Shown: positions 12,493 to 21,322, numbered from the stretch's first letter. The stretch is DNA of 27,250 nt from Fibrobacterales bacterium (GCA_051532055.1 JAOPTX010000054.1:1-27250), one strand, 5' to 3'. Numbers and translations: made by a program. Notes: generated by a model not told the origin, from the sequence alone.

Positions 12493-12651
12493 CTAATATT
12501 CAGATGATGAGTTCGAATCTTCAGAAGAACTAGAAGGGGCTTCTCTATCACATCCACAAGTTGTAGATTCGGAACCAAAGACACCCCCACTTCCACATCC
12601 AATAAATAGTGTCAGGCTAATAAATAATAATCCAATGAGTGTAACTCTCAT
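12493..12651 (-). CDS. 52-aa micro-lipoprotein (not in ORF track): MRVTLIGLLFISLTLFIGCGSGGVFGSESTTCGCDREAPSSSSEDSNSSSEY
   Basis: Translated by hand. AAAAAAGGA lies 5 nt before the ATG; basic N-terminus, hydrophobic core and lipobox FIG-C; paralogous to 19195-19338. Confidence 0.8.
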   Translation of the reverse strand: MRVTLIGLLFISLTLFIGCGSGGVFGSESTTCGCDREAPSSSSEDSNSSSEY

Positions 12652-12691
12652 ACCATTCCTTTTTTGATTAAGTCGCCATTTAAAGAGTAAC

Positions 12692-12769
12692 TTAATTGTT
12701 TATTAATAGTGAATCCGGAAAGGTTAAAGTGAGTAGTAATGAAATTACTATGGAAATAGATGTATTCAT
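12692..12769 (-). CDS. Possible 25-aa hydrophobic peptide MNTSISIVISLLLTLTFPDSLLINN
   Basis: Translated by hand. GGAG 5 nt before the ATG; co-oriented with the micro-lipoprotein and ending 40 nt upstream of it. No homology evidence. Confidence 0.35.
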   Translation of the reverse strand: MNTSISIVISLLLTLTFPDSLLINN

Positions 12770-12978
12770 GGGGGCTCCATTATGTTATTTACAGATATAA
12801 CGAATGATAATCCCCAATGTGATACTCGTGTCTTAAATTATGGTAAAAAGAGTGTTCCAATACTATTCTTAGCATAAAAGTTGAGTTCAGAAGAGACTCC
12901 ATAATAATACACAGTATTAAAACAACACAAATAGAGTACGCATTGGGAACACATAGTAGACGGAACCCAACACCAATA

Positions 12979-13008
12979 TTGACATCCATCATACCGATTC
13001 TGTATATT
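12979..13008 (+). promoter_or_regulatory. Candidate sigma70-type promoter for the 13042 gene
   Basis: TTGACA (12979-12984), 18-nt spacer, TATATT (13003-13008), ending 33 nt upstream of the ATG. Confidence 0.45.
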
Positions 13009-13041
13009 TCACTATAGAACCCTCAAGCACTGTGAAAATGT

Positions 13042-15030
13042 ATGAATAATTTGCTTTTGATTTGCCTAAATCTCTCTATTTGTCTCTATTTAGCCCTATT
13101 GACCAGCTGTAGTGAAGCTAATCCCGCTATGCCCGCGGAAGTATCGAGCCATGCTCAAGTAGCTGTACCTACTTCATCAGCAGTGACTATAAGCTCTTCT
13201 TCAGCCCAACTCTCATCATCATCTATTGCCCCCATTGCCAATCCATCCATGGAAACACTTATGCTGTATTACACCGATACGGTAACATCTACCAATGGTG
13301 ACTATTATTCTCGCTACTTCTATAAAATACCGTTAGATCTAGACTCGTATTTAAGGACTGGTGTACTCGATTCTGCAACCCATGCGAGTCATACTATCTG
13401 GTTAGAAAATAATGATTGTGATACCTATATGCGCTATTTTGAAACAATTGATGATCAAGGGTATGTTTACTGTCGACATGGTTCTTCTCGTGAGACCATG
13501 CCAACGGATTCAGGGATATATATCAGTGAAACAGAATGGCAATTCGGCTGTCGCTTAGGCGACTCAAAATATTTCACAGAATCTGATACTCTGTATACCC
13601 ACTATATCGGCCATCATAATGATTGTAGATCCGACTATACATCCAGCTCATTTAGAGTGTTGAATAATACTGATACAATCGAATACCAAGATTCAACCGG
13701 TTTAAAATGGAGTGTTGATGGTACCTTAAAAAAGGGATCCCGTAGTGCTATTGGCTTCTCTTGGGAAGTTGATTTACTCACTCAAGACACCATTACTCGT
13801 ACCCATTCTGCCATCGGTTCACTATCATGGACTACTCTCGATAGCATCAGAACGTTTGAATACCGGCTTGATAGCAATACCATTGAGTATTTTCACATTA
13901 ATCTATCAACCAATGACACAATACTCTATGAGAAGAAAGTAAATGGTGAGAAAGAGGGCGTATGTTATTACCAAAAATCAGAATTAGTGGCCCTCAATGC
14001 GTATATTTCTTTAACAGTGTATGAAACCTATGGATCAGGAGTGCTCAATGGTAGACGCTGGGCAACCAAAGTTAATAGAGAGTTTTATTTTGAAGAACAC
14101 TACATCGATGGCCTTTTCCATGGTGAAGTATGGTACTCTGCTCTTAACGGTGGTTATTGGAACAAAACACTATACACCTATGCTGCAGGCCTGAAAGAAG
14201 GTCCTTTTTTTAGAACACTCAATGGTGACACTCTTCTGTATGGTACTTTTCAAAATAACCAAAAGAATGGTACCTTTTATAAAAAAGAGGAAACACATCC
14301 AGGGTTTACCTATCAATACCTCACTCACTATACTGCAGATATAAAAGAAGGACCTGCATATGTGATGAATGCATTAGGTGACACCCTAAAGTATCAGCAC
14401 TACTCTAATGACACACTCCTGGCACCCGCAATACTACCGACAGAACAGTTTCCCACAATCAACAATCTTAAAATAACAAATCCTTCTAATGACACCATTA
14501 CCCAATGGAAATTTATTGATAGTACTTACACCTCTCAACAAATTAAAATCATAAGAAATGATTCCCTTTTTGCGTACACCTTTTCAGGCTCTATTTACGC
14601 GGCAGACTTCCGAAGGATTGTTGGCAAATCACTTATGATTGAAACAGGTGCCATTGGTGATATTGCTGTTATTGGAGCGATCAATCAATCTAGCCGCTAC
14701 AAAAGTACTGTGCTTGCCATTGATTACGATTCTCTTGATAGAATTGAACATATTTATTATCAACACTCCAGTTATTCTGACCCGAGCGCCCCTGTAGTCA
14801 ACAGTTTTGATGCAACAGTAAATAGTGATGGCGACGTTTCTAGAATGAATTTCCGAGCAAAAGATGGCAACTTTAATGAACATACTCTTTGTATTTCTGT
14901 AGCCACCTGTAGCACCCAAGATGCCCATTATTTGAATATTATTAGCGACGCCAAACAAATTCCATTTATTGATGTATCGACAATACCATTTAGTGGAGAA
15001 TGGAATAAGGTCGTTTCGTGGAAGCCATAG
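13042..15030 (+). CDS. Lipoprotein with MORN-variant (YwqK-like) repeats
   Basis: 662 aa; lipobox LTS-C and Ser-rich linker. Repeated units NGEKEGV, GVLNGRR, YIDGLFHGEV, YAAGLKEGPF, FQNNQKNGTF, YTADIKEGPA. Confidence 0.8.
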   Translation: MNNLLLICLNLSICLYLALLTSCSEANPAMPAEVSSHAQVAVPTSSAVTISSSSAQLSSSSIAPIANPSMETLMLYYTDTVTSTNGDYYSRYFYKIPLDLDSYLRTGVLDSATHASHTIWLENNDCDTYMRYFETIDDQGYVYCRHGSSRETMPTDSGIYISETEWQFGCRLGDSKYFTESDTLYTHYIGHHNDCRSDYTSSSFRVLNNTDTIEYQDSTGLKWSVDGTLKKGSRSAIGFSWEVDLLTQDTITRTHSAIGSLSWTTLDSIRTFEYRLDSNTIEYFHINLSTNDTILYEKKVNGEKEGVCYYQKSELVALNAYISLTVYETYGSGVLNGRRWATKVNREFYFEEHYIDGLFHGEVWYSALNGGYWNKTLYTYAAGLKEGPFFRTLNGDTLLYGTFQNNQKNGTFYKKEETHPGFTYQYLTHYTADIKEGPAYVMNALGDTLKYQHYSNDTLLAPAILPTEQFPTINNLKITNPSNDTITQWKFIDSTYTSQQIKIIRNDSLFAYTFSGSIYAADFRRIVGKSLMIETGAIGDIAVIGAINQSSRYKSTVLAIDYDSLDRIEHIYYQHSSYSDPSAPVVNSFDATVNSDGDVSRMNFRAKDGNFNEHTLCISVATCSTQDAHYLNIISDAKQIPFIDVSTIPFSGEWNKVVSWKP

Positions 15031-15257: not shown

Positions 15258-18200
15258 ATGCTCCATTTATCTAAACTTCATTTCAGTATGTTCGCCCTAA
15301 TGGCAACAACGCTTTTTAGTTACTACAATCCAGACCCTGATGATTGGGTCGATGGAACTGGTGGTACGGTCATGACCATTGCAGACTTGCAGTGGCTCTC
15401 TGATCACTCTGACGTATGGGATGAAGACTGGGTGCTTGGAGCTGATATTGACGCTGCCACCTCTGCTAGCTGGAACTCGAGTACAGGTATAGACCCAATA
15501 GGAAATGCGGGGACACATTTTACTGGGTCGTTTGATGGACAGGGGTTTACCATTTCAAATGTGACTATTGATCGAAGCGGCAAAGATACTCTTGGTTTTT
15601 TTGGGTATACTGATGGTGCTGCAATAACGAACCTTAATCTTAAGGATGTAATTATAACCGGAGACTATGTATTAGGTGGCCTTATTGGGTACAGTAATTA
15701 CTCTCAAATTGTGAATAATACGGTATCAGCAACTCTCACAGGAATAACGTCCGGAAACTATGGCAGAGTAGGTGGTTTGATTGGTTCGAGTAATTGGTCA
15801 ACAGTACGCTATAATAGAACCACAGGGACGGTTACGGGGAATCGTTATGTTGGTGGAGTCGCTGGCATAGCTAAGGAATCTACCGTTGAAATGAATTACT
15901 CATTAAGTATTGTAAGTGGAGTTCTATTTGCAGGAGGACTTTTAGGGTCGAGCGAAGGTACTGTGGTTCAAAACAATTTTTCGACCGGCGCCATTGTTGT
16001 TACAGATAGAGATGTTGGAGGGCTCATAGGGTATTGTACCAATTCCACCATTAATAAGAACTATGCCGCTGGAGAGGTTATCCATGCAGGAAGTAATTAT
16101 GGTGGCTTTATAGGAGAGAATGCTTCATCATCATCCGAAATTTCAGAAAACTATTACGACTCTGAAGGTGCGAATACTACAACGGGAGTGGGGTATGGTA
16201 ATGAAGTGGGTATGGTTTTTGGTAAAACAACTCTCGAGTTTGCTGCACAAAGTACTTTTGTAGATTGGGATTTTGATTCCGTTTGGGAGCTAGGGGTTAA
16301 TCCTGCTATTGATGCCCACACTCGCCCCTATTTCCAGACTCATAAAAAAGACTATTTTGTTTCGGTATATGCAATCACTAGTCTCGGAGGAACACTCCAG
16401 GGGGCCGGTTCACATAACAGTGGGGACATGGTTACTCTGACCGCTGTTCCAGATTATGGGTATCGATTTGTCGAGTGGAAAAAGAGTGGCGTGGTCGTAT
16501 CGACTGATAGTTCTTATACTTTTGCATTCACCGACTCTCACGATATTACCATTATGGGACTTTTTACAGAGGACCCGCAATTTGACGGCGGTGAGGGTAC
16601 TTCAAATAATCCATACCAGATATCGAGTATAATACAATTGAAAAAATTGAGCAATCTCCCAAATCTATGGGATAAGCATTTTGTATTAGTTGATGACATT
16701 GATGCATCTGAAACTGCGATTTGGGTAGATGATACTAATGCTGTGGTAGGTTTTCGCCCTATTGGTGAGCAAGACTACTCAATAAATGAGGTGAGAGTCC
16801 CCTTTACTGGAAGTTTTGATGGCGCAGGCCATGTAATAAAGGATCTATTTATAAGCCAGCCTAACAAACATGAAACTGGTTTTTTTGGTTATGTTGAAGG
16901 CGGAACTCTTATAAATATTGGTTTTGAAAATGCTCATATAACAGGTGGTTTTTATGTTGGTGGACTGGTTGGATTGATTAAAGACGGATCTATTCAGTCA
17001 AGCTACTCTACCGGTACGTTTGTTTCAGAGAGCGGGTATTCAGTAGGAGGACTCATTGGTACTGCCATAACTTCGACTATTACCGATTGTTACTCTGTGA
17101 GTACTGTCAGTGATGCAACCCGAACCGGAGGGTTTATCGGATTTAACTATGGCTCATCTCTTTCTAATAGTTATTCTGTAGGTCAGGTGAGCAGTATTGT
17201 TGCAAACTCTTTTGTAGGAAGTTTTGCCGGCATGAATTCTAGTTACCGTTCCCCTGGTGCTGATAATGCAATTATTACCTTTTCCTATGTGGATTCAATT
17301 ATTGAGAAGTCTTTAACCATTGCTTCACAAAATGAATCTGCAGATGTACGACAATTAACCACGGCAGAGTTTTTGGTGAACGATAGTTTTCCAAACTTTA
17401 ATTTTAACGACACTTGGCAAATAGGAACAATTGCAGATATCGATGGTGAAGCACGGCCCTATTTACAATGGCAACTCAATGGATATGATGTAGCGTTTAC
17501 CGTTGCAGAGTATGGGACTATTTTTGGGGCTACAACTCAAAATATTCAGGAAGGAAATGATGCCGGGAGTGTAACTGCAAGAGCGAATGAGGGATGTTAC
17601 TTTGTTCAATGGCTCGACAGTGATGGAGCGAATGTCACTTATGATACCACCCTCTCATTAACCAATATTCAAGAGTCAGCAACCTTCAGCGCTCAGTTTA
17701 ACACCACTTATAATAAGGTCACATTTTACGCCGATACACAGAGCTCTATTACAGGAATAGATAGCCAGCATGTTAATTATGGATCGGATGCCAGCCCCGT
17801 TGAGGCCACCCTGAACGAAGGATACGAGTTTGTTGCTTGGCTTGATAGTTCTGGTGCGGTCATTAGTGAAGATAATCCCGTTACGATCTCAACGGTAAAA
17901 GAGTATACGCGGTTGTATGCCTCAACTCAATTGATACATTCAACGGTGACTTTTGTGGCGGGAGACCATGGCTCTGTCGATGTAATAAGCATAACAAATA
18001 TTAGATATGGTGCAGGAACTGATAGTGTGACTGCCTCCCCCGAAACCGGATACCAGTTTGATGGGTGGTTTACTGACGGCTCAATCCTCCTTTCAAATGA
18101 AAATAAGTTTGCTTTTGAAAGTATCTTTTATGACTCAACCATTACTGCACTCTTTAGTATTAAACAATATACCATGCTCATTCAATCAGAAAGCAATGGA

Positions 18201-19061
18201 ACCATTTCTGGTGACACACTTCAAGTGATAGATCATGCCGGTTCAGGCGATACTGTAACTGCTCGAGCTGAAGAAGGATACTCTTTTAACTATTGGAAAA
18301 ATAGTACGGGTGATTCAGTATCTATAGAGAACCCTTTACCCCTTGAGTCCATTATTAATCCGGATACGCTTATAGCTACTTATACCATTAATAGCTACAC
18401 CCTTGATCATTCTGTTGGCTCAGGCACCGGAACTATTACGGTAGATAAGTCAGTAGCCAACCATGGTGATTCAGTTACCTTTACCGTTACTACTGCTCTG
18501 GGATATCTACTCGATTCTGCTCTCGTAAATGGGGTTATTATCCCCCTTGATGTGACCGTTGATCCTGGTGTGTATGTCAAAACTATTTCGGTTCAGCAAG
18601 CCGTAATGTTGACGATCTACTTTTCTGAGCTTCCCCTGAGTTCAAGTTCGTATAACTCATCTGCCGTGAGTTCCGCTGAGTCTCGATCATCTTTTCAAAG
18701 CTCTGAAGCGTTGATATCAAGTAGTCTACTCAGTTCCAGTAATATTCCGGATGGGGCGTCACTCAGTTCTTCAAGCGAACCTATAGTTCTTTCATCTAGT
18801 AATGACATGGTGGTTGTAAGCTCTTCAACTACAATTGCGCCGATATATGAAACTAAACGATTAAGAGGTGCAGCCTCAGCACAACTCATTAATATGGTGG
18901 ATGGATCTAATCAATTAAACATACCAGAACATGCACGTTCATATACCCTTTACTCGATACATGGAGTAGTGCTCTATAGAGGAGGAGTGATTGAAAGTGA
19001 CGCGCTTGTTTTACCTGAAAATGTATCCCGTGGATTAATGCTTATTAGGTTTAGTGAGTAG
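15258..19061 (+). CDS. Large secreted GLUG-motif/beta-solenoid protein with InlB B-repeat-like domains, Ser-rich linker and T9SS-like C-terminal tail
   Basis: 1267 aa; GAGGA RBS and signal peptide. Two homologous modules (DIDA...PIG...FTGSFDGxG..I...GFFGY plus VGGLIG repeats, each ending W...ID...RPY). About six TAxPxxGYxFxxW-type repeats. Tail YTLYSIHGVVLYRG...RGLMLIRF. Confidence 0.88.
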   Translation: MLHLSKLHFSMFALMATTLFSYYNPDPDDWVDGTGGTVMTIADLQWLSDHSDVWDEDWVLGADIDAATSASWNSSTGIDPIGNAGTHFTGSFDGQGFTISNVTIDRSGKDTLGFFGYTDGAAITNLNLKDVIITGDYVLGGLIGYSNYSQIVNNTVSATLTGITSGNYGRVGGLIGSSNWSTVRYNRTTGTVTGNRYVGGVAGIAKESTVEMNYSLSIVSGVLFAGGLLGSSEGTVVQNNFSTGAIVVTDRDVGGLIGYCTNSTINKNYAAGEVIHAGSNYGGFIGENASSSSEISENYYDSEGANTTTGVGYGNEVGMVFGKTTLEFAAQSTFVDWDFDSVWELGVNPAIDAHTRPYFQTHKKDYFVSVYAITSLGGTLQGAGSHNSGDMVTLTAVPDYGYRFVEWKKSGVVVSTDSSYTFAFTDSHDITIMGLFTEDPQFDGGEGTSNNPYQISSIIQLKKLSNLPNLWDKHFVLVDDIDASETAIWVDDTNAVVGFRPIGEQDYSINEVRVPFTGSFDGAGHVIKDLFISQPNKHETGFFGYVEGGTLINIGFENAHITGGFYVGGLVGLIKDGSIQSSYSTGTFVSESGYSVGGLIGTAITSTITDCYSVSTVSDATRTGGFIGFNYGSSLSNSYSVGQVSSIVANSFVGSFAGMNSSYRSPGADNAIITFSYVDSIIEKSLTIASQNESADVRQLTTAEFLVNDSFPNFNFNDTWQIGTIADIDGEARPYLQWQLNGYDVAFTVAEYGTIFGATTQNIQEGNDAGSVTARANEGCYFVQWLDSDGANVTYDTTLSLTNIQESATFSAQFNTTYNKVTFYADTQSSITGIDSQHVNYGSDASPVEATLNEGYEFVAWLDSSGAVISEDNPVTISTVKEYTRLYASTQLIHSTVTFVAGDHGSVDVISITNIRYGAGTDSVTASPETGYQFDGWFTDGSILLSNENKFAFESIFYDSTITALFSIKQYTMLIQSESNGTISGDTLQVIDHAGSGDTVTARAEEGYSFNYWKNSTGDSVSIENPLPLESIINPDTLIATYTINSYTLDHSVGSGTGTITVDKSVANHGDSVTFTVTTALGYLLDSALVNGVIIPLDVTVDPGVYVKTISVQQAVMLTIYFSELPLSSSSYNSSAVSSAESRSSFQSSEALISSSLLSSSNIPDGASLSSSSEPIVLSSSNDMVVVSSSTTIAPIYETKRLRGAASAQLINMVDGSNQLNIPEHARSYTLYSIHGVVLYRGGVIESDALVLPENVSRGLMLIRFSE

Positions 19062-19194: not shown

Positions 19195-19338
19195 CTAATT
19201 TGATGATGAACTCGGAGCCTCTTCCCGGTCACAAGGTGTTTTCATGTCAAATTCTCTGCATACACTATACCCATCCCCACACCCTATAACAGCAGTGGTA
19301 AGGAGTAATAGTGTCATTGAACCCATAATCATTTTCAT
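19195..19338 (-). CDS. 47-aa micro-lipoprotein MKMIMGSMTLLLLTTAVIGCGDGYSVCREFDMKTPCDREEAPSSSSN
   Basis: 3' part of the 117-aa track ORF. The start is placed at 19338 because AAAAGGA lies just upstream and a signal peptide with lipobox VIG-C follows. Paralogous to 12493-12651. Confidence 0.8.
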   Translation of the reverse strand: MKMIMGSMTLLLLTTAVIGCGDGYSVCREFDMKTPCDREEAPSSSSN

Positions 19339-19549
19339 AGTTTTTTTCCTTTTGAAATAGTGATGACCCCAAAATACAACGAGTCGGGTAAGCAGGGTAC
19401 TGAGAATTAAATATTTTACGCAACGATGACATAGCAAGCAAAGTATCAATGAAGAGTAGAATAGAGTTGATGTCGATTGAGTTGAGCGGAGGTGAGTAAT
19501 GTATGCTTGGAGAACATGATTGCCCAATGGAGCAATTTTACTAAACAAA

Positions 19550-21322
19550 TCACAGAGACATTTTGAATTCCAAAATCAATTCCTTGGCCTGTCTGGACCC
19601 AAAGCTCCCTGGGTTGTTTTCGATGTAGCGATCGAGCAGTTCTATCGCTTGAGGTTTTTTGCCAAGTTTTTCCATCGAAGAGGCGATTTCTTTGTAGAAA
19701 GGAAAGTATCCTGGAGAGAGCTTCCTTCCTGTTTGATAAAGGGCTATGGACTTCTGATAGTCTTTCTCCTGAAAATGATAAAAGGTTCCAAGATAGAGGT
19801 ACCCATCTCTATCATCCGGATACAGTTCGATTATCATCTGGTATTTTAACTTTGTCCTTTTCAGATCCCCTACAGCCCAAGCTATATTACCTTGATAAAT
19901 AAGCGCTTCTTTACTGAACCCGGTTATTTTATTTTCAAAACTGAGAGTCTTTTTTAAATACTTTTCCTGCCTAGCCTCATCCCCATTAAAATAGCTGGCG
20001 CACATAATACCTGAATAGGCCATTGCAAAACTCGTATCCAAAGTAATCGCTTCTTCGTAATTCTGAATAGCCAGATCAAATTCACCAGACATGATGTAAT
20101 TATGCGCCTGGAGGAACTTTCCGTAAGCCTCTATATTATTGGTGGTTAAATCACCAAAACTGAAATTCTTTTCTTCGGGGAGCTTTATGTTGTAAGCCTT
20201 GGATATCACCGTATAAAAATCGGACGTCAGTGCCTGAACCCCTTCTTTAAGTATCGATTCTATAGAAGAACTGGAATAGCTAAATGTTTTAAGCAATTTC
20301 TGTTCGCGTATGTCATAGAGAATTATGTTGACTTTGTAGGAATCTATTAACTTGGTTATGTCTCCTGTTATAACCAATGCACCTCCCAGAGATTTTGCCA
20401 CTGTATTGAGTAACCGATAATCCTGAGTTACATTTTTATTTCTTACGCCTGTCCTTTCCAGTTCATCTGCCACTCTGACCGGACTGATCATATGAACTTT
20501 TGGCCAATTGTAAAATTTCTCTGTAATGGAGTTCGCAATCATATCACCAATGGGGGCTTTAATTGTTGTATCTCCCAGGCTATTAGACACACTTAAAATC
20601 ACAAGACCAGGCCGCTTTACTTTATTTGATGCGATACTCCCTGTATTGAAAATACCGATCTCCCCTCCTGAAAAGGATAAAAAAGCCACCACTATTCCAA
20701 CTAAAAGAATCAACACACCTGCAATAACCGGAACCCTATTTGCTTTATTAATGCCGGCTTCTTTTTTTTCGGGTGTTTCTTTAGACGGGTGCTTAATTTT
20801 AACCGAAGGGTCCCAGAGTACATTAAACACTTCGATAGGGTAACTAATGTTTTTTAAATCCTGAATACCGACACTTTGAAATTTAAATTCACTGTTACTC
20901 TGGACGATATTGTACACCTGCTCTGATACAAAAATGTGGCCAGGCAGTGCTTTGGATTCAAGCCTTTGAGCAATATTTACCCCATCACCAAAATAATCTT
21001 TATCCTTTTCAATAACATCACCCAGATGTATCCCTATTCTAATTTCAAATATTGTACCTGCATCCAGAGTACTATTTCTTTTTTTGAATTGTGACTGGGC
21101 TTCTGCGGCGCTTTTAATAGCGTCAGTAACACTTTCAAATTCTACCATGTACGCATCACCAATAGTCTTAATCACTATTCCTTGATTTTCATGGATTGCT
21201 GAGTCCATTATGGCGTTGTGTTCCTGAAGCAGATTCAATGCCAAATTTTCATCCGTGTTCATCAGTCGGCTGTAGCCAACAATATCGGTAAACATGATTA
21301 TTTTGAGGTGCTTTTTATTCAT
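19550..21322 (-). CDS. Class III adenylate/guanylate cyclase domain protein with one TM helix and C-terminal TPR repeats
   Basis: IMFTDIVGYS, KTIGDAYM, IRIGIHLGDV and DYFGDGVNIAQRLE cyclase motifs; TM segment VPVIAGVLILLVGIVVAFLSF; TPR-like AIQNYEEAITLDTSFAMAY. Confidence 0.93.
   Translation of the reverse strand: MNKKHLKIIMFTDIVGYSRLMNTDENLALNLLQEHNAIMDSAIHENQGIVIKTIGDAYMVEFESVTDAIKSAAEAQSQFKKRNSTLDAGTIFEIRIGIHLGDVIEKDKDYFGDGVNIAQRLESKALPGHIFVSEQVYNIVQSNSEFKFQSVGIQDLKNISYPIEVFNVLWDPSVKIKHPSKETPEKKEAGINKANRVPVIAGVLILLVGIVVAFLSFSGGEIGIFNTGSIASNKVKRPGLVILSVSNSLGDTTIKAPIGDMIANSITEKFYNWPKVHMISPVRVADELERTGVRNKNVTQDYRLLNTVAKSLGGALVITGDITKLIDSYKVNIILYDIREQKLLKTFSYSSSSIESILKEGVQALTSDFYTVISKAYNIKLPEEKNFSFGDLTTNNIEAYGKFLQAHNYIMSGEFDLAIQNYEEAITLDTSFAMAYSGIMCASYFNGDEARQEKYLKKTLSFENKITGFSKEALIYQGNIAWAVGDLKRTKLKYQMIIELYPDDRDGYLYLGTFYHFQEKDYQKSIALYQTGRKLSPGYFPFYKEIASSMEKLGKKPQAIELLDRYIENNPGSFGSRQAKELILEFKMSL

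Follow-up and report, generated by a model that had tools for sequence, protein, structure and literature searches.

Putative Micro-Lipoproteins with a Conserved Cys Pair in a Fibrobacterales Bacterium: Two Probable Genes of a Small Family

Introduction

Small lipoproteins are a known kind of bacterial gene. A few of them, such as LptM, have proved to be important parts of envelope machines, and most are missed or unnamed. Among the described systems that resemble the ORFs of this study, the colicin lysis (bacteriocin release) proteins (PF02402) are precursors of about 45–52 aa that give lipopeptides of about 28–35 aa, and the ColE1 lysis protein contains a Ser-rich stretch. Entericidin A/B and YhfL/DUF4223 are encoded by stand-alone lipoprotein genes of about 45–55 aa; to our knowledge, entericidins are amphipathic helices that possess neither a Cys pair nor an acidic Ser tail. 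LptM (YifL; PF13627, NF047847) belongs to the enterobacterial LPS translocon. According to two preprints, it is made as a small precursor (about 50–70 aa), and its function lies in a short N-terminal segment of the mature protein beside the lipid anchor, which is followed by a disordered, poorly conserved tail (bioRxiv 10.1101/2023.01.02.522452; 10.64898/2026.10.03.756453).

Short segments with a CXC motif have been described. In one report, the CGC loop of MauE is a disordered periplasmic active site that is needed for disulfide formation (bioRxiv 10.64898/2026.03.05.709764). In another, short designed CXC peptides can replace an essential oxidoreductase and mimic protein disulfide isomerase (bioRxiv 10.64898/2026.01.27.701630).

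In this study, we analyzed a contig of 27,250 nucleotides from a Fibrobacterales bacterium; this whole stretch is called the window below. A sequence-only reading of the window had proposed two ORFs, copy A and copy B, as members of a family of micro-lipoproteins of about 50 aa with a conserved CDRE(E)APSSSS motif. Their products resemble the above systems in size. In contrast to LptM, to which they show no sequence match, they belong to a family with a conserved Cys pair, which is multi-copy and varies between sister species. Unlike entericidins and YhfL/DUF4223, they match no family, and their mature part is predicted to have no structure. As in the MauE loop and the CXC peptides, a CGC sequence is predicted to lie in a disordered, membrane-tethered periplasmic segment. 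However, MauE is not homologous: it is a multi-pass, quinone-linked protein with a conserved Phe-Gly after the CXC, which is absent here. Furthermore, copy B possesses C-x8-C and not CXC.

Results

Two ORFs of 52 and 47 Codons on the Minus Strand

The window is the entire contig C54 of a 5.17-Mb assembly (G000; 181 contigs, 94% complete, 39.6% G+C). Translation of the minus strand gave exactly the two peptides quoted in the sequence-only reading, MRVTLIGLLFISLTLFIGCGSGGVFGSESTTCGCDREAPSSSSEDSNSSSEY (copy A) and MKMIMGSMTLLLLTTAVIGCGDGYSVCREFDMKTPCDREEAPSSSSN (copy B). The features of both ORFs and of their surroundings are listed in Table 1. The AAGGA sites and the lengths of the mature products were also found as had been claimed. 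In both ORFs, the ATG given is the first start in the frame. Copy B is nested in a longer TTG-started frame (19195–19548), which overlaps the end of the cyclase gene. Both peptides exist as singleton entries, from a 27,250-base contig, in a collection of 5.8 billion proteins; thus, some gene caller had called both ORFs, and they were hidden only from the track used for the sequence-only reading.

Table 1. Positions of the ORFs, their parts and related features. Positions without a locus name are those of the window.
Feature	Position	Strand	Remark
LRR lipoprotein gene, 763 aa	10089..12380	(-)	112 nt downstream of copy A, same strand; neighbor only
Copy A ORF	12493..12651	(-)	52 codons + stop; translation
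Copy A mature peptide, 34 aa	12496-12597	(-)	predicted from lipobox
Copy A lipobox F-I-G-C, Cys19	12595-12597	(-)	rule-based lipoprotein scan
Copy A signal peptide	12598-12651	(-)	residues 1-18; rule-based lipoprotein scan
CDREAPSSSS of copy A	12523..12552	(-)	its Cys is the second Cys of CGC
AAGGA Shine-Dalgarno-like site of copy A	12657..12661	(-)	5 nt before ATG; sequence
Metatranscriptome contig, 199 nt, no mismatch	12515..12713	(.)	run X2, same sample; strand not known
Copy B ORF	19195..19338	(-)	47 codons + stop; translation
Copy B mature peptide, 28 aa	19198-19281	(-)	predicted from lipobox
CDREEAPSSSS of copy B	19201..19233	(-)	sequence
Copy B lipobox V-I-G-C, Cys20	19279-19281	(-)	rule-based lipoprotein scan
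Copy B signal peptide	19282-19338	(-)	residues 1-19; rule-based lipoprotein scan
AAGGA Shine-Dalgarno-like site of copy B	19347..19351	(-)	8 nt before ATG; sequence
Class III cyclase-TPR gene	19550..21322	(-)	211 nt upstream of copy B, same strand; neighbor only
Loci of the Fibrobacteraceae family	L060-L084, e.g. L060:1501-1653, L061:489-638	(+) for both examples	

Consensus scans for promoters and terminators gave no match that supports gene A or gene B. Positions 12652–13041 are a 390-nt AT-rich intergenic region between copy A and a divergent gene for a 662-aa lipoprotein, and the sole strong sigma-70-like match in it (11/12) faces the plus-strand gene.

The Peptide of the Motif Shared by Copies A and B Is Kept with Different Codons

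A six-frame pattern search, a kind of check that the sequence-only reading had suggested, was run over the 5.17-Mb assembly. With C[DE]R[DE]E?[AS]P as the query, three matches were obtained: A, B and one unrelated match. Among 104,912 six-frame segments, A and B were reciprocal best phmmer matches, with weak scores (E 0.098 and 0.032). In a pairwise BLASTP comparison, 18/37 residues were identical (E 5e-6), and the DNA flanks of the two ORFs did not align. The ten shared motif codons differ at 12/30 nt. When 12 substitutions were placed at random, the peptide was kept in 0 of 1,000,000 placements; this test is post hoc, and the motif had been chosen for its conservation. These results support the proposal that it is the peptide and not the DNA that was conserved, and the motif common to A and B is more than chance. 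Among the copies, pairwise pS was 0.61–0.83 (saturated), pN 0.45–0.48 and pN/pS 0.56–0.77; since the synonymous sites are saturated, these ratios prove little. The copies are old.

Additional Members of the Family

A profile made from A and B was searched against 1.84 billion representative proteins, and the matches were A, B and P0003 only. P0003 is a metagenomic protein of 53 aa that was matched over its full length (E 1.6e-5). It has 11/17 residues identical to A in the loop GCGSxGVxGxxxTxCGC. The comparison of B with P0003 was not significant (E 1.8), and the only tie of B to the family is its similarity to A. A rule-based scan of the genome, blind to the motif, collected small lipoprotein-like ORFs outside long frames. 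The 17 candidates included a third copy of 46 aa at C3:207259-207399 (C3 copy). The sister species (G001) has one copy of 56 aa, which is preceded by an AAAGGAG site.

The five members (A, B, the C3 copy, the G001 copy and P0003) are each 46–56 aa in total length. In the alignment, an I-G-C lipobox was present in all five, and each member has exactly two further Cys residues. These form a CGC (+12 to +16, counted in the mature peptide), except in B, where they form C-x8-C (Cys at +8 and +17). An acidic, Ser-rich, disordered tail is common to all members. Only A and B carry CDRE(E)APSSSS; in the three other members, CGC is followed by ANPDD, IDPDL or IKLSS. Thus, the proposed micro-lipoprotein family gained members of the same size, whereas CDRE(E)APSSSS could not be kept as its motif. 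The idea of a constant scaffold with a variable loop is nearer the reverse for A and P0003, in which the loop is the conserved part. The absence of further homologues, which would have spoken against the family, was not what we found: the C3, G001 and P0003 copies are homologues of the same size. Five sequences, which come from three organisms at most, make up the family.

When A and B were each compared with entries of similar length in the 5.8-billion protein collection, only the queries themselves were returned. Searches of JGI metagenome contigs (P0003, P0001) and of GTDB genome contigs (P0003, A plus P0003) gave 86–600 pattern stretches, none of which was supported by tblastn.

Coding Signatures and RNA

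ORFs of 40–60 aa with both a lipoprotein signal and a Shine-Dalgarno (SD)-like site were found four times in the genome (A, B and the C3 copy among them) and not once in the reversed genome. The SD-like site was present in 4/4 copies for which DNA is available. Such a site precedes 31% of 2043 long ORFs versus 7.4% of 20,000 random ATGs; for AAGGA, the values are 8.9% and 1.1% of the same two sets. The codon scores were 0.154 for A and 0.144 for B, and 0.117–0.154 for the four copies with DNA. For comparison, 609 long ORFs had a mean of 0.140 over their first 50 codons, and the mean of 733 random small ORFs was -0.091; the four copies are typical of the former and lie in the top 2–3.5% of the latter. 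In all four, the proposed frame was the best of six by this score. The ORFs, the family and its coding signatures are direct observations.

The 199-nt RNA contig reaches from 62 nt upstream of ORF A through most of the ORF, at a depth of 2.3 in one unstranded run; the RNA comes from a sample from which the genome itself may come, and DNA carry-over is possible for this contig. RNA contigs of run X2 also cover the LRR gene downstream of A. Over positions 12916–14211 of the divergent 662-aa gene, no RNA depth was seen in run X2, and DNA depth was even. No listed RNA piece lies over ORF B; stretches free of RNA are not evidence of silence. Thus, transcription of copy A has been partly shown. The exact RNA contig over copy A speaks, at the level of the transcript, against a lack of translation, which the sequence-only reading had named as a ground for rejecting the gene.

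Lipoprotein Signal and Predicted Mature Peptide

The lipoprotein signal was assigned by a home-made rule: a positively charged n-region, an uncharged hydrophobic h-region and [LVI][ASTVI][GAS]C at about residues 15–25. Copy A fits the rule with R2 and F-I-G-C19, and copy B with K2 and V-I-G-C20. The genome encodes Lgt (PF01790, E 8.4e-60) and LspA (PF01252, E 2.4e-34), both over the cut-off. It also encodes DsbB and MauE, and no VKOR was found in it. With the five-row alignment, AF2 placed a helix only at residues 2–17 (the signal peptide), and pLDDT was below 60 elsewhere.

Residue +2 is G, S or T across the members. The six residues after the lipobox Cys are net negative in 4/5 members, with charges counted by eye. 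Net-negative residues at this place are the surface-export signal as defined for Bacteroidota in a preprint (bioRxiv 10.64898/2026.10.03.756453). Four of the five members would fit this definition, which may or may not hold for Fibrobacterota.

We also analyzed the large predicted lipoproteins of the genome (n = 250). The IGC lipobox was present in 34/250 and SSSS within 60 residues of the Cys in 32/250, and CxC within 30 residues of the lipobox was found in only 2/250. Since IGC and SSSS are generic and CxC is rare in large lipoproteins, the Cys pair is the special part of the family. The signal peptide and the Ser-rich acidic tail are the generic "anchor plus tether" of this organism.

Distribution and Genomic Context

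As the sequence-only reading had suggested, we searched the phylum with a profile and tabulated the neighboring genes. The five-member profile was searched against 296 Fibrobacterota genomes. G000 gave three matches at E<=1e-17, G001 gave one, and no other genome reached this level. The next-best match was a 192-aa frame at E 4.5e-5, and the other matches, tallied in 114 genomes at E<=0.05, were mostly signal peptides of long frames. No family member was found by the profile search in the 294 other genomes. The family is genus-restricted so far, with three copies in G000, one in G001 and one metagenomic protein.

Copy A and copy B: The LRR gene has no orthologue in G001. The cyclase gene has one, and the gene behind it encodes another small Cys-rich lipoprotein, not B. 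The sequence-only reading had linked A with the LRR protein and B with the TPR cyclase. Neither link recurs in the four known contexts, and G001 keeps the cyclase without B; these links are not supported.

C3 copy and G001 copy: The neighbors of the C3 copy are genes for a large secreted protein and a small gene, and no copy was found at the equivalent site in G001. The G001 copy is adjoined by a gene for a Lon C-terminus and by response-regulator genes, assigned by eye. It lies inside a clean indel of ~260 bp (L015 1394-1731), which is absent from the syntenic G000:C7:159870-159946. This indel holds exactly the micro-lipoprotein gene and its SD site, between the gene for the Lon C-terminus and a conserved terminator-like hairpin. 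A gene-cassette (attC) origin was considered for this locus, and inspection by eye revealed no obvious repeat at its flanks.

None of the four loci (0/4) is common to G000 and G001, and all lie at indels or synteny breaks. Copies A, B and C3 are separated from the adjoining genes by 49–134 nt; at the G001 copy, this distance is about 230 nt. Four loci in four neighborhoods suggest stand-alone, dispensable, fast-turning-over genes and not operon partners of the LRR or cyclase genes.

Some other features of these regions were observed. The lipoprotein that fills the slot of copy B in G001 (L010:1103-1306:-) is 43% identical to another in this genome (G000:C3:128810-129037, L085:111-338:-). Both are Cys-rich lipoproteins of ~67–75 aa with the pattern CxVNGKTYSDG..DGC..C.C.DG, and their Pfam matches, to fibronectin type I, VWC and pacifastin modules, are all below the threshold. 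A Fib_succ_major domain is present in the window (Pfam scan), and the runs in which this DNA occurs are labelled "marine metagenome"; both agree with an uncultured marine member of Fibrobacterales. Positions 15258–19061 (plus strand) encode a 1267-aa protein in which GLUG motifs and InlB B-repeat/Flg_new domains are present and whose C-terminal part is rich in Ser. From 15.6 to 18.2 kb, the DNA run contains second-strain contigs with many differences, and one of these skips 255 nt (18173–18429) and carries 27 other letters instead.

Comparison with Known Families

At E<=10, none of the five members (0/5) matched any Pfam family, including LptM (PF13627), Lysis_col (PF02402) and Entericidin. 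NCBIfam gave scattered sub-threshold matches to lipoprotein signals only, and LptM was not among the matches at E<=10. The entericidin-like reading offered earlier thus finds no match in Pfam or NCBIfam. Matches to PHROGs were weak and non-recurrent, to families without function (best E 0.0046, one member each), and no PDB sequence was matched at an E below 0.64. In the ESM Atlas, all scores were below 0.9 and nothing was above chance. The nearest named clusters were the colicin E1 lysis cluster, at 0.77, a score that the tool itself places within the range of chance, and DUF4223 clusters at 0.76–0.77. Among the 14 large ORFs of the window, we found neither a bacteriocin gene nor an immunity gene next to A or B; the neighbors there are the LRR gene, the cyclase gene and unrelated genes. 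No description of the family was found in the literature on small lipoproteins, Fibrobacter and lipoboxes that the search covered, from which most subscription journals are excluded. Based on these literature searches and the absent family models, we regard the family as not in print.

A Separate Family of Small Lipoproteins in Fibrobacteraceae

Weak profile matches in other genera led to a second lipoprotein family, in Fibrobacteraceae, with members of 46–62 aa. Its build is [GA]-C-G-[SD]-S-S ... [DE]-C-[TS]-x-D-P-x(2-4)-C, and the last Cys precedes an acidic tail. At E<=0.001, a two-sequence profile of this family had matches in 113 of the 151 f4-family genomes and none in G000 or G001. Many of the f4 matches are full length in frames of 50–110 aa, and some weaker ones are N-termini of long frames. 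There is usually one gene per genome. At 25 loci (Table 1), an AI-2E-family transporter gene lies upstream in 13/25 and carB downstream in 10/25; the corresponding G000 sites have no small lipoprotein. No Pfam or NCBIfam model was over the cut-off for this family.

This family is like the G000 family in belonging to the same order and in its signal peptide, Ser-rich spacer, exactly two further Cys residues and acidic tail. The C-x8-C of copy B resembles its C-x6-9-C. However, hhalign aligned the two families over the signal peptide only (columns 1–23), and neither A nor B contains the motif [DE]-C-[TS]-x-D-P-x(2-4)-C. The Fibrobacteraceae family is an analogue in build, and a distant common origin with the G000 family may exist. 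Two further lipoprotein ORFs of 56–57 aa were seen in other Fibrobacteraceae (L004:1486-1659:- in G024 and L025 in G163); they have acidic/Ser-rich tails and no extra Cys. Genes of the "anchor plus tether only" kind may be common in the order.

Discussion

Based on the comparisons above, copies A and B are very probably real genes and members of a small new family of lipid-anchored peptides. The fuller reading, in which they are translated paralogues of a genus-restricted micro-lipoprotein family and encode exported lipopeptides with a working Cys pair, is the one that we favor, with somewhat more confidence than doubt.

The ORFs could instead be leftover 5′ ends of larger lipoprotein genes, that is, truncated and decaying stubs of a signal peptide and tether without function. 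The IGC lipobox and SSSS are common in the large lipoproteins of this organism, and the profile weakly matches the N-termini of long frames. One example is a 504-aa frame on C42 of this genome with LFIGC (E 8.8e-4), which starts MKTLIILLITQLLFIGC...YSSSSSEE. Each of the four loci coincides with an indel or a synteny break between G000 and G001, and presence or absence between sister species also fits dispensable or decaying sequence. However, all five members end at 46–56 aa, there is neither room nor a remnant frame downstream, and the SD-like site and gene-like codon usage are intact. The Cys pair is conserved here, in contrast to its rarity in large lipoproteins. Furthermore, a search for longer relatives with A and B in the 5.8-billion collection gave 0/664 candidates at E<=10. 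Because of the common ends at ~50 aa, the short gaps, the lack of longer relatives and the intact coding signatures, we consider stubs unlikely. The sequence-only reading had been wary of homologues that are N-termini of long lipoproteins; the long ones found share generic features only.

A function like that of LptM is about equally improbable. Here, the lipidated N-terminal segment would dock into an outer-membrane machine, either the LPS translocon or the FCB surface-lipoprotein export machinery, and would tune it or compete with its cargo. The build is the same as that described in the LptM reports, a short conserved N-terminal mature segment with a disordered tail (bioRxiv 10.1101/2023.01.02.522452; 10.64898/2026.10.03.756453). 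The tail copies the tether of large lipoproteins, and the charge after the Cys is net negative in 4/5 members. However, there was no match to LptM models, and a housekeeping partner is unlikely to be multi-copy in one species and moved or missing in the next. E. coli LptM is also not known to possess a Cys pair.

We place slightly lower the possibility that the ORFs encode exported signals, RiPP-like precursors or ligands of the LRR lipoprotein (A) and the TPR cyclase (B). The Cys- and Ser-rich cores resemble RiPP substrates, and A is co-oriented with and close upstream of an RNA-covered LRR lipoprotein gene. Nevertheless, the N-terminus is a standard lipoprotein signal and not a leader, and the Pfam scan of the 14 large ORFs of the window found no modification enzyme: no radical-SAM, lanthionine synthetase, YcaO or peptidase-transporter. 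The RiPP-like reading offered earlier is not supported by this result. The four known contexts all differ, and the cyclase is kept in G001 without B.

Least likely of all are chance, untranslated open frames in AT-rich intergenic DNA that resemble signal peptides: the frames are very short, the genome-wide E between A and B is weak, no consensus promoter or terminator was found and most searches gave no homologues, but the reversed genome contains no such ORF versus four in the real one, P0003 is an independent full-length match among 1.84 billion, the ten motif codons keep their peptide with 12/30 nt different, the codon scores are near the top of those of random small ORFs, and an RNA contig lies over A.

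For the favored reading, real genes for lipopeptides with a working Cys pair, we infer the following route. The precursor would be exported by Sec, Lgt would add diacylglyceryl to the lipobox Cys and LspA would cut after Gly-1. The product, a lipopeptide of 28–40 residues without a folded domain, would be sorted to the outer membrane and might be exposed on the cell surface. In its mature order, a Gly/Ser/acidic spacer would be followed by two free Cys residues and then by an acidic, Ser-rich, disordered tail, of the same kind as the tether after the lipobox in the large lipoproteins of the organism. The genes stand alone, with no conserved partner, and are gained or lost between sister species.

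Lipidation and location, and likewise the state of the pair and a function, are inferred. An even number of free Cys residues in an envelope that makes disulfides suggests a disulfide, a redox site or a metal site. The pair may be the most likely working part of the peptide, a proposal of low confidence that draws on the likeness to the MauE loop and to CXC peptides. In a periplasm with DsbB and MauE, it would form a strained CXC disulfide or a dithiol, and could serve as a redox site, a metal site or an intermolecular link held at the membrane beneath a polyanionic tail. Our preferred guess for the product is a lipopeptide of the outer membrane or the surface that carries a disulfide, redox or metal site. 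A more speculative form of this idea, to which we give little weight, is that the peptides might be natural minimal catalysts or chelators. An anchor with little more than a CXC dithiol beneath a polyanionic tail would then act at the outer membrane as a one-motif thiol-disulfide exchanger, a counterpart of the MauE/PDI active site without a surrounding protein, or as a Cu/Zn site. In that case, this family and the separate one of Fibrobacteraceae would point to a phylum-wide unrecognized class of Cys-pair micro-lipoproteins.

The obvious motif (CDRE..SSSS) and the Ser-rich tail are in part a generic tether, which calls for caution with motif-based calls in this phylum. The gain is modest: two to four gene calls, a hypothesis on the Cys pair and a wider Fibrobacter analogue family that is open to culture work. 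The family has no Pfam or NCBIfam model, and its minimal design of an anchor, a Cys pair and an acidic tail is unusual.
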